Source: a virus (taxonomy: Duplodnaviria > Caudoviricetes). From it: DNA of 64,000 nucleotides. How positions within the stretch are numbered: position 1 is the first letter of the stretch; each line of letters opens with the position of its first letter. Location of the stretch: positions 26,530-90,529 of the IMG/VR virus record IMGVR_UViG_3300004255_000002. One strand, written 5' to 3'. Under the pieces are notes generated by a model. That model saw only the letters and a program-made list of their open reading frames with translations, was not told the DNA's origin and did not search any database. Both the position numbers and the translations under genes were made by a program. This document shows, piece after piece, positions 60,865-63,760 of this stretch.

Positions 60865-60892
60865 TTGACCAATTGTTTGAATGTGTTATGAT
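60865..60892 (+). promoter_or_regulatory. Phage promoter heading the RNA island
   Basis: TTGACC-16 bp-TATGAT with extended TG. Confidence 0.75.
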
Positions 60893-60898
60893 GTATCT

Positions 60899-61336
60899 AC
60901 GTTGCAAGATTAAGGTAGCGAAGAACACAAGAATTGATGGGTGGGTTGAGTCTCTCCCTTAACTGGTGACCGAATAATTCGGGGTACTAACGAGCTTTTA
61001 GCGGGGCTTTCGTGGCGGTAGAGCATACGATTAGGTTAGGAAGAAATACATGGTGCAACAGTGAGACTCAGGATAAGGTTCATTTGGGTACCTTATCCCC
61101 AGTGTTGGCGGGTAATGGGAAGTACAACCATTGGTCGAAAGTGAAATCCCAGCACTGGGGATAGGGTAAGCAGAATCCTTGCAAGGTAGTTAGTAGCCTA
61201 GGGCATCGTAAGTGAAGGTGGAAACCCTGATACGCGATATCCCTAAGTGGCTAACCAGTAGTAAGATGGAGGTATATAGAGGCACCTTACTTCGTAAGGA
61301 AGGTCGATACCAGAATATTACTGATTAGGTATTTAT
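60899..61336 (+). ncRNA. Candidate large structured ncRNA (about 440 nt), family unassigned
   Basis: No ORF of 60 aa or more. 18-bp helix 61091-61108/61149-61166 with G-U pairs, 8-bp long-range helix 60947-60954/61063-61070, further stems. Confidence 0.6.
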
Positions 61337-61412
61337 AGGCGAGTAGTTCAACTGGTAGAACAGTACCCTTTGACGGTATATGTTGGAGGTTCAAGTCCTT
61401 CCTCGCTTGCCA
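61337..61412 (+). tRNA. tRNA-Gln (anticodon TTG)
   Basis: Full cloverleaf: AGGCGAG/CTCGCTT acceptor, GTACC-CT TTG AC-GGTAT, GGAGG-TTCAAGT-CCTTC, G73, encoded CCA. Confidence 0.93.
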
Positions 61413-61425
61413 GAATAGATATAAA

Positions 61426-61501
61426 GGCGAAGTAGCTCAGTTGGCAGAGCAGAGGGTTCATATCCCTAGGGTCGATGGTTCAACTCCATCCTTCGCAACC
61501 A
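61426..61501 (+). tRNA. tRNA-Met (CAT), initiator-like
   Basis: Cloverleaf with unpaired 1:72 (G/A), three G-C pairs in the anticodon stem (GGG/CCC), A73, CCA. Confidence 0.88.
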
Positions 61502-61506
61502 GTTAT

Positions 61507-61634
61507 GCAGTGCGTTACAGGTCTGCCCGTCCACCAGCCCCAATTGCAAAAGGCAGGTTAAGGGAATACAGATAGGGTAGGAAGTGGGAGTCGCGCTCCA
61601 CTTAGGGAGGTTCGAGCCCTCTCGCATTGCGCCA
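61507..61634 (+). ncRNA. Enlarged tRNA-like RNA A (128 nt)
   Basis: 8-bp acceptor GCAGTGCG/CGCATTGC, T-arm GGAGG-TTCGAGC-CCTCT, long variable-type arm, G-CCA end, no canonical D or anticodon arm. Confidence 0.75.
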
Positions 61635-61642
61635 GTTTTAAT

Positions 61643-61788
61643 GGGTAGTAGAAGCACGAATGAAAGCTAAATGGCCTTATAGGTAGTGCACGGTCTTTAA
61701 GATAGATAGGTGAGTAATTAGGGTGGATGCTTGAGTAGAGAGATAAGCTCCTCTATGACGTGGGTTCGACTCCCATTACTACCTGCCA
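61643..61788 (+). ncRNA. Enlarged tRNA-like RNA B (146 nt)
   Basis: 8-bp acceptor GGGTAGTA/TACTACCT, T-arm GTGGG-TTCGACT-CCCAT, variable-type arm TAGAG/CTCTA, G-CCA end. Confidence 0.75.
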
Positions 61789-61796
61789 GAGTTATA

Positions 61797-61883
61797 GGAG
61801 GGTTCCGCTAGGTTGGCTGGCAAATCGGTTTGAACCCGATGGGAACCGAAAGGTTAGGGGTTCGACTCCTCAGCCCTCCGCCA
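61797..61883 (+). tRNA. tRNA-Ser (TGA), 8/4 acceptor/T-stem type
   Basis: GGAGGGTT/AGCCCTCC 8-bp acceptor, 4-bp T stem, ATCGG-TT TGA AC-CCGAT, variable arm AACC-GAAA-GGTT, G73, CCA. Confidence 0.9.
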
Positions 61884-61887
61884 GTTA

Positions 61888-61990
61888 TGTTGGGTAGTGT
61901 AAGCAGCACAGCATCGTGATAGTGGGCACCAAAATCTCTTGAGGTCACACAGCGGAGCAAGATAAGGGACGACACCTTAACCAACTACCA
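61888..61990 (+). ncRNA. Degenerate tRNA-like RNA C (about 103 nt)
   Basis: GTTGG/CCAAC acceptor core, TA linker, GTG/CAC D-like stem, TAAGG-7 nt-CCTTA T-like arm, A-CCA end. Confidence 0.5.
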
Positions 61991-61991
61991 G

Positions 61992-62152
61992 TAAAGTGCG
62001 GCGTGGAGAATCATAGACACGCAAAAGCTAGAAATATGCTGAGGGTCTGTCCTTGGGGAAGAAAAGAGAATCCCGCTTCTAGGCTCGTGCGGGAGGAGGA
62101 CTTAGTTGCCAGTCCTAGAGCAACGAGTGGGAGTAATGACCCACCACTTAAA
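61992..62152 (+). ncRNA. tRNA-shaped RNA D with a large central insertion (about 160 nt)
   Basis: TAAAGTG/CACTTAA acceptor-like stem, D-like arm GCGTG/CACGC, T-like arm GTGGG-AGTAATGA-CCCAC, no encoded CCA. Confidence 0.45.
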
Positions 62153-62155
62153 GAA

Positions 62156-62485
62156 CGGAGAAGCCTGTAGGTACAGGTATGGCATCCTTATGGGGTGGCA
62201 TGGTAGCGCGAAACTAGACTAGGTTATGCAGGGGTACTTTTCAGACGGGGTACAAATGCAGGGCAGTGGAGCTAGACCTTCGTAGCCCAAGGTAGAAGAC
62301 CGAACTACCCTCTAGCTACACCAAAGCAGTAGACGTAGCCATGCCTGAATCCCTATACGGTCAAGACACGGTGCGATTGTCCGATGGAAACAAAATGCCG
62401 CAAGGCCAGCGACCTAACTAAGTCGTTAAGTGTAGGGCTACCAGAACAGTCACAAAGTCGGCGACAGGGTGCAAAGCCCTGACCA
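62156..62485 (+). ncRNA. Candidate structured ncRNA E (about 330 nt)
   Basis: Non-coding with multiple helices (GGCATGG/CCATGCC, GCTAGA/TCTAGC, GGTAG/CTACC, GCC-GCAA-GGC). Ends CAGGG-TGCAAAG-CCCTG-ACCA. Confidence 0.45.
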
Positions 62486-62493
62486 ATTAAATA

Positions 62494-62521
62494 TTGACAA
62501 ATTAATTCAATCTGTTAATAT
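62494..62521 (+). promoter_or_regulatory. Phage promoter (second RNA transcription unit)
   Basis: TTGACA-16 bp-TAATAT with extended TG. Confidence 0.75.
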
Positions 62522-62815
62522 ACAAGTAAGGGAGTGAAAGTTGGTACATTAGGTATTCGAGCATAGGAGAGACCAACAATGCTACTCCAACCAAATAGAG
62601 TGAAGGTGTCCAAGCAATTATGGGGCAGTGCCATAGGCCAACCACTACTAGGAGACAGACCTAGCACTCGACCAAATCCAAACGCGAAGTGCGCTAGACG
62701 CCGAAATCGGAAAGACTGGAACGTGCGCTGACCTGCGGATAATTGCCATACCCTACAGAACTAAAACTGAGTGGCTGTAAGATGGGTGACAGGGCGGAAA
62801 GCACGCTCAAACTAA

Positions 62816-62865
62816 CATCCCTGATGAGCTAGTGAAATCCTAGCGAAACGTGAGAGCGTAGGATG
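62816..62865 (+). ncRNA. Hammerhead ribozyme, type I
   Basis: CATCC / CTGATGA / GCTAG-TGAAATC-CTAGC / GAAA / CG-TGAGAG-CG / TA / GGATG. All core nucleotides are present. Predicted cut after GUA at 62860. Confidence 0.9.
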
Positions 62866-63142
62866 CGCCACACTAAAGGCATATAGGTGGAAACAAGTGG
62901 CTATACCACCTCAGTACTAGGCAGACGATATGACCCAGCCCGAAGGGAGAATCTAACAGGCCCTAGTAGCAAAAATCGTGAATAGCAAACGTGATACTTG
63001 GCACGTAGTCCAAGTACAGGAGAAGACCTGATAGGGACATAAACCCTTACGAGAACGAGCCTAGCGAACTGGCGTGATAGGCAAGAAACTTCAATTCAGA
63101 GCGCAGGAGGCTAAAGCCGACTCTCAGAGCTTGAGAGACCAC

Positions 63143-63217
63143 AGCCCTATAGCTCAGAGGTAGAGCAGAGGACTCATAATCCTTTGGTCACTGGTTCGAG
63201 ACCAGTTGGGGCTACCA
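63143..63217 (+). tRNA. tRNA with CAT anticodon, most likely tRNA-Ile2 (lysidine, reads AUA)
   Basis: Cloverleaf closely resembling E. coli ileX (C4-G69, C5-G68, CTCATAA loop, TGGTC variable loop), A73, CCA. Confidence 0.85.
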
Positions 63218-63238
63218 TAAAACTACACGGAGGTAGAT

Positions 63239-63418
63239 ATGGCAGTAGAAGTACCGAAAGACTTTACACCATGGATGACATTCACCGAGGCACTAGAACA
63301 GTACCTAGACCAGCGAGAAATCATCCAATCTTGTCACGTAAGCCACGGCCCTAAGTATGATACCGCCGTAGAGCATGCTCAGAATGCCGCAATCCATATG
63401 GAGTACTTCACATCATGA
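63239..63418 (+). CDS. Small hypothetical protein (59 aa)
   Basis: GGAGG RBS, ATGA overlap with the next gene. Not in the ORF track. Confidence 0.6.
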   Translation: MAVEVPKDFTPWMTFTEALEQYLDQREIIQSCHVSHGPKYDTAVEHAQNAAIHMEYFTS

Positions 63419-63732: not shown

Positions 63733-63760
63733 TTGACTAATTAATTCAATATGATATTAT
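63733..63760 (+). promoter_or_regulatory. Phage promoter
   Basis: TTGACT-16 bp-TATTAT. Confidence 0.8.

Follow-up and report, generated by a model that had tools for sequence, protein, structure and literature searches.

Hammerhead ribozymes have been known in phage genomes since 2011, and the effect of their cuts is still largely guesswork. The locus described here raises this question in a simple form: what would a lone hammerhead do in a long non-coding stretch of a phage transcript, well ahead of a tRNA? The stretch of DNA analysed, called the window throughout, makes up the final 64 kb of an IMG/VR phage record of 90,529 nt, rated 99% complete by CheckV. The large terminase shares 50-55% identity with its counterparts in the Stenotrophomonas phages DLP_3, DLP_5 and Summit and in several Vibrio siphophages, and because of this likeness the host is probably a gammaproteobacterium. 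With a single ribozyme, a well-defined promoter and no nearby coding sequence, the locus is a clean test case for the function of the cut, and the downstream tRNA supplies an independent RNase P processing site within the ribozyme's transcription unit. The reading we favour, and hold with moderate confidence, is that a promoter-driven hammerhead of a recurrent subclass is co-transcribed with tRNA-Ile2 and cuts in order to uncouple transcripts.

A type I hammerhead motif

A descriptor scan of both strands of the 64-kb window returned 62816-62865 as the sole hammerhead. Its parts are as follows.

62816-62865, + strand: type I hammerhead ribozyme motif, 50-nt, with core, stems I, II and III and a GUA triplet
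62816-62820 (CAUCC) with 62861-62865 (GGAUG), + strand: stem I, 5 bp; C62820-G62861 adjoins the core
62821-62827, + strand: core CUGAUGA (C3 U4 G5 A6 N7 G8 A9)
62828-62832 (GCUAG) with 62840-62844 (CUAGC), + strand: stem II, 5 bp; G62828-C62844 adjoins the core
62833-62839, + strand: loop II, UGAAAUC
62845-62847, + strand: G12-A13-A14 (GAA)
62848-62851 with 62856-62859, + strand: stem III, 4 pairs (A62848-U62859, C62849-G62858, G62850-C62857, U62851.G62856)
62852-62855, + strand: loop III, a GAGA tetraloop (GNRA)
62860/62861, + strand: predicted self-cleavage site, 3' of H17 (A62860), placed by the hammerhead consensus position

All invariant positions of the hammerhead core and all closing pairs are present in this segment. 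Three helices surround the core, each with its standard closing pair; the A15.1-U16.1 pair corresponds to A62848-U62859, and H17 is A62860, not G. Loops cap stems II and III while the two strands of stem I run on into the flanking transcript, which is type I topology. The earlier note on this DNA had described a complete type I hammerhead cut between 62860 and 62861, and core, helices, topology and GUA triplet bear out this description, as does the agreement of the cut with the consensus position. Its stem III was placed at the right location, but the 3 bp and hexaloop drawn there are better read as four pairs closed by a GNRA tetraloop.

When 62 nt are folded, the structure of minimum free energy is that of the hammerhead (-12.6 kcal/mol). 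In a 70-nt context, a rival fold of -14.7 kcal/mol pairs GCGUA with UGCGC over the cleavage site, about 2 kcal/mol below the hammerhead fold, where the energy models used leave tertiary contacts out of account. No Watson-Crick pseudoknot was evident by eye in the window hammerhead.

Detection by descriptors and covariance models

At the observed quality, the descriptor gave no match in 300 dinucleotide-preserving shuffles of the window, and a relaxed descriptor gave four matches in 300 dinucleotide shuffles (0.013 per window). Loop II has a 14-nt look-alike at 61140-61153, which lacks a hammerhead core. A leave-one-out covariance model was made from 13 other members of the subclass described below, without the window copy. 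It scored this copy at 53.1 bits (E 2.7e-11), a value that is partly circular because the members were picked via the stem II pattern of the window itself, a choice that has no bearing on stem I, stem III and the 5' UAA. The window copy was the only match of the model in the 64 kb and also across the whole 90.5-kb record. Judged by its sequence, 62816-62865 is a genuine type I hammerhead motif and a further example of a ribozyme kind known from phages.

A search with the Rfam hammerhead models, which the earlier note had proposed as a check, gave a sub-threshold result only. In Rfam 15, Hammerhead_3 (RF00008) scored 20.8 bits against a gathering score of 48.5, and Hammerhead_1 (RF00163) had no match at E values up to 10 in the whole record. 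The other subclass members tested, some of which score far higher on the subclass model, likewise gave no gathering-level match in Rfam 15. Since these members are missed too, the missing Rfam match is a matter of model coverage and not counter-evidence. The hammerhead models of Rfam 15 overlook a whole recurrent phage subclass, a blindness that matters for annotation.

A recurrent subclass with its own stems I and III

The pattern CTGATGAGCTAG-N7-CTAGCGAAAC was found in 15 other IMG/VR contigs, and the window's exact 29-nt module of core, stem II and loop II in 10 metagenome contigs; in total, the stem II/loop II module is present in 25 other viral or metagenomic contigs. Wherever the whole motif was readable, the flanks complete a type I hammerhead with stems I and III of its own. 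In the 10 metagenome contigs with the identical module these two stems differ, yet they are complementary, and the contexts of the exact 29-nt pattern are all unrelated to the window locus. A covariance model of the copies revealed further copies within the same contigs. Of the cells in the subclass alignment, 95% pair; 13 of the 16 pairs vary on both sides, and sliding the partners brings the paired share down to 25-35%. The core letters are identical in 32 of 32 aligned members, save for N7 (U in 30 of 32) and one A at G12. Hallmarks of the subclass (L009-L023, L030-L039) are a 5-bp stem I after UAA, the stem II GCUAG/CUAGC and the loop UGARAUY; the three positions directly 5' of stem I are U, A and A in 22, 27 and 30 of the 32 members, respectively.

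Many copies sit between genes. Of 23 copies, 13 have the stop of the upstream ORF among the 5 nt that immediately precede stem I, where the consensus has UAA, and in 10 the next ORF of at least 60 aa begins 9-30 nt past the aligned segment. Small contigs of the subclass carry two or three copies, most of which follow a stop codon and precede the next ribosome-binding site, and five large phage or provirus records (99-238 kb) have one or two subclass copies each. By TerL, the large phages with this subclass are unrelated to the window's phage, and the five cultured phages with the nearest TerL had no match to the hammerhead model.

The window copy shares with the other copies the same or nearly the same 29-nt module, the 5-bp stem I and the conserved 5' UAA, and it keeps the loop II UGAAAUC. 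Its cleavage triplet is GUA, where the subclass has GUC or GUA. In most subclass copies the upstream gene ends with this UAA, and a ribosome-binding site comes no more than 30 nt later, whereas the window copy has no adjacent ORF.

62813-62815, + strand: UAA directly 5' of stem I, here preceded by just 14 open codons

The presence of UAA although so few open codons precede it hints that these letters also have a structural role. The A-rich 3' tail of the subclass copies is missing here, stem III is the shortest of the set, and stem I is followed directly by C in place of the A seen in 23 of 32 members. Because of this C, the tertiary contact required for rapid cutting at cellular Mg2+ may be weaker in the window copy. 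On the subclass covariance model it scored 61.5 bits against a maximum of 85.6 among the members, which places it in the lower half.

Potentially, the motif might be an inactive relic of an intercistronic ribozyme whose neighbour genes have decayed, or a chance look-alike, and no longer cleave. The departure from consensus 3' of stem I, the shortest stem III and the lower-half score would fit such an origin, and so would the rival fold of similar predicted energy over the cleavage site, the Rfam scores below threshold and a UAA retained with only 14 open codons ahead of it. However, decay would be expected to strike core positions first, and the invariant core positions and closing pairs are all intact; the strict descriptor found nothing in 300 shuffles, and Rfam misses the other members tested as well, including far higher scorers. 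We consider a relic or look-alike very unlikely.

The probable transcription unit and its promoter

The ribozyme lies in an untranslated stretch between a promoter-like site and a tRNA gene.

62494-62521, + strand: promoter-like site, TTGACA, 16 nt, TAATAT, with TG before the -10
62528-62815, + strand: ORF-free 5' leader, 12-18 stop codons per frame
62861-63142, + strand: ORF-free spacer from the predicted cut to the tRNA, 282 nt
63143-63217, + strand: tRNA with CAU anticodon and encoded CCA, Ile2-like; labelled Met by ARAGORN from the anticodon
63239-63729, + strand: two overlapping small ORFs (59 and 104 aa) of no family and with no promoter of their own

The site at 62494, named as a promoter in the earlier note, belongs to a promoter family of this phage. 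The 28-nt consensus TTGACNAATTNNTTNAATNTGTTANNAT occurs in 12 copies between 23795 and 63760 of the window, all on the + strand, where 0 are expected by chance; these copies include 55547, 57137, 59602, 60865, 62494 and 63733. The spacer within the 28-nt consensus is conserved as well, which suggests recognition beyond host sigma-70 alone. Transcription would start near 62528. No terminator-like site was found on the + strand between 60500 and 64000, hence none from the promoter to the tRNA. Since no terminator follows the promoter at 62494, the ribozyme is probably carried on the same transcript as tRNA-Ile2 and the two small ORFs. The most economical transcript map runs from the promoter at 62494 through about 295 nt, the ribozyme, 282 nt and tRNA-Ile2 to the 59-aa and 104-aa ORFs. 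The 59-aa ORF has a GGAGG ribosome-binding site, and the next promoter copy lies past both small ORFs, at 63733-63760. The 615-nt untranslated leader could be open to Rho, ending transcription before the tRNA, though its C/G ratio is below 1. This region (62528-63142) is strongly purine-rich and U-poor (A 34%, G 26%, U 16-17%), beyond the rest of the window.

The tRNA at 63143-63217 is 84% identical over 74 nt to E. coli tRNA-Ile genes with a CAU anticodon (5426 of 5426 genomes), and it has the pairs C4-G69 and C5-G68. It is probably a lysidine-dependent tRNA-Ile2 of the E. coli ileX/ileY type, and the 84% identity agrees with the assignment to tRNA-Ile2 that had been made from the letters alone. 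The wider region 60865-63239 has no credible ORF and encodes a tRNA-Gln, a CAU tRNA, a tRNA-Ser and, at 63143-63217, the second CAU tRNA. Read-through from the upstream tRNA unit into the ribozyme unit is possible. Two oversized tRNA-like elements can be drawn by eye in the same island, at 61505-61635 and 61643-61790, each with a 7-bp acceptor-like pairing, a GGTTCGA T-loop and an encoded G-CCA end; neither ARAGORN nor Rfam called them as tRNA.

No orthologous locus of the ribozyme unit was found. A comparison of the DNA of 62450-63250 with GenBank phages matched the tRNA alone. Seven relatives of the 104-aa ORF were identified; all of them lack an upstream tRNA or hammerhead as well as the ORFs that lie next to it here. 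IMG/VR contained no relatives of the 88-aa and 274-aa ORFs, and the small ORFs of the tRNA island had no PHROG match.

Proposed effect of the cut

In the reading we favour, the phage promoter at 62494 would drive a transcript from about 62528 through tRNA-Ile2 into the two small ORFs. The hammerhead would fold in the nascent RNA and cut after A62860. This would free a 5' RNA of about 333 nt, made up of leader and ribozyme body and ending in a 2',3'-cyclic phosphate, and would leave the downstream RNA, with spacer, tRNA and ORFs, with a 5'-hydroxyl. RNase P would presumably release the tRNA 5' end independently and thereby free the spacer as a 282-nt product. The fragment sizes given earlier (about 330 and 280 nt) are thus right in their arithmetic.

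At 282 nt before the tRNA start (63143), the predicted cut is too distant to trim the tRNA or form one of its ends. Ribozymes that form tRNA ends cut at a mature tRNA end or within a few nt of it, which is not the case for the site at 62860/62861. The distance of 282 nt supports the earlier statement that the ribozyme would not trim the tRNA directly. Instead, the likely effect of the cut would be to sever the upstream RNA from the part that holds the tRNA and the ORFs. Such a role is proposed because of the intercistronic members of the subclass and because phage hammerheads cut polycistronic RNAs in vitro: the hammerheads that flank genes in phages and prophages cleaved polycistronic RNAs of about 2 kb (Perreault et al., 2011; PMC3088659). 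At this locus, the cut would uncouple the downstream RNA from the RNA ahead of it, including any transcript that reads through from the upstream tRNA unit. Both new ends would carry chemistries that are poorly handled by the host's 5'- and 3'-end-dependent RNases. The idea that the RNA is cleaved and religated was discarded: the record was searched and encodes neither an RtcB nor an RNA ligase domain.

Flanking RNAs and ORF-free units in other phages

Transcript uncoupling leaves about 600 nt of ORF-free RNA at this locus unexplained. The earlier note had concluded that the cut matures two separate structured RNAs, and in this form the phage RNA island would yield two distinct functional, structured non-coding RNAs of 333 and 282 nt. 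The unit is free of ORFs (12-18 stops per frame), has its own promoter and is unusual in its purine-rich, U-poor composition (A 34%, U 16-17%), and unrelated large phages also hold a single hammerhead of the subclass in long ORF-free units, all of which would suit such a function. The claim of structure found no support, however. The fold stability of the flanks is no different from that of shuffles, with the 5' flank no better (z = +0.83) and the 3' flank slightly better (z = -1.46); in a sliding-window test of low power, the mean fold z was -0.19 for the unit and +0.38 for coding DNA. No homologues of the flanks were found in GenBank phages, IMG/VR or the fetched loci, the flanks match no Rfam family, and the ORF-free units of L010, L014, L015 and the window share sequence only in the ribozyme. 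It is unlikely, in our view, that the cut matures two such RNAs.

The ORF-free units of two other records are organised as follows.

L015, 4888-6195, + strand: ORF-free unit of about 1.3 kb; promoter-like site, 240 nt, ribozyme, about 900 nt, rho-independent terminator
L014, 4826-3835, - strand: ORF-free unit of about 1.0 kb; promoter-like site, about 560 nt, ribozyme, about 270 nt, rho-independent terminator

L014 and L015 lie in unrelated phages of about 100 kb; in each, the ribozyme is the genome's only hammerhead of the subclass, and about 70 nt are inserted into its stem III. In L010, the order is ribozyme, 240 nt, a 53-aa ORF, tRNA-Arg and tRNA-Leu. A further hammerhead, unannotated, is present in Pseudomonas phage phita81A (PQ738200.1, 54346-54406; L040:1501-1561) and in nine near-identical IMG/VR contigs (L041-L049). 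A tRNA-Thr lies about 246 nt downstream of this hammerhead in phita81A and in 8 of the 9 contigs, and in one contig (L046) a C-to-U change keeps the affected stem I pair as U.G.

A non-coding unit punctuated by a ribozyme could be a recurrent phage design, in a sample that is small and was selected by pattern. It is tempting to speculate that the single hammerhead in promoter-driven ORF-free units of 0.6-1.3 kb (window, L014, L015 and in part L010), often among tRNA genes, processes fast-evolving phage non-coding RNAs whose halves act separately. If true, the ribozyme would parallel the punctuation by RNase P that the tRNAs provide elsewhere in the same RNA island. We regard this as a long shot.

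Alternatively, a larger conserved phage RNA might be the functional unit and carry the hammerhead as an optional insert in one of its loops. Helices that would enclose the ribozyme can be drawn in the window (GGCG 62783-62786 with CGCC 62866-62869), in L010 (7 pairs) and in phita81A (CUGACC/GGUCAG). However, helices of this kind are expected by chance within 40 nt per side, and no motif is common to the flanks of the window, L010, L011, L014, L015 and L040. Most members moreover abut a stop codon and have a start codon about 30 nt or less downstream, so that a larger RNA would not fit. This alternative appears highly improbable.

Comparison with known systems

With the type I hammerheads of phages and prophages (PMC3088659; Rfam clan CL00010), the window copy has in common the core, the three-helix junction and the open stem I, and like them it is part of a phage transcript, where it occupies non-coding sequence between functional units (PMC3088659). 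Unlike the hammerheads of PMC3088659 and CL00010, it scores below the threshold of every Rfam 15 hammerhead model. It also differs from those of PMC3088659 in its position, in a 615-nt ORF-free leader before a tRNA and not between protein genes, and in number, with one copy per genome where those hammerheads occur as several that flank genes.

The hammerhead of phage phita81A resembles the window copy in its 5' flank AACUAA, its loop II UGAAAYY, the lack of ORFs around it and its position upstream of a phage tRNA. It is unlike the window copy in its 4-pair stem I and in H17, which is U, and the phage is unrelated; in addition, its ribozyme and tRNA are separated by a terminator-like hairpin with a U run.

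Like the ribozyme described here, the HDV-like theta ribozymes (PMC10879173) belong to the small self-cleaving ribozymes and occur within transcription units of phage tRNAs. In 77% of the tRNA-associated theta ribozymes the cleavage site lies at most 1 nt from the tRNA 3' end (Kienbeck et al., 2024; PMC10879173), and removal of the 3' trailer has been proposed as their role (PMC10879173). The fold differs as well, HDV-like in theta ribozymes and a hammerhead in the window, where the predicted cut lies 282 nt before the tRNA 5' end.
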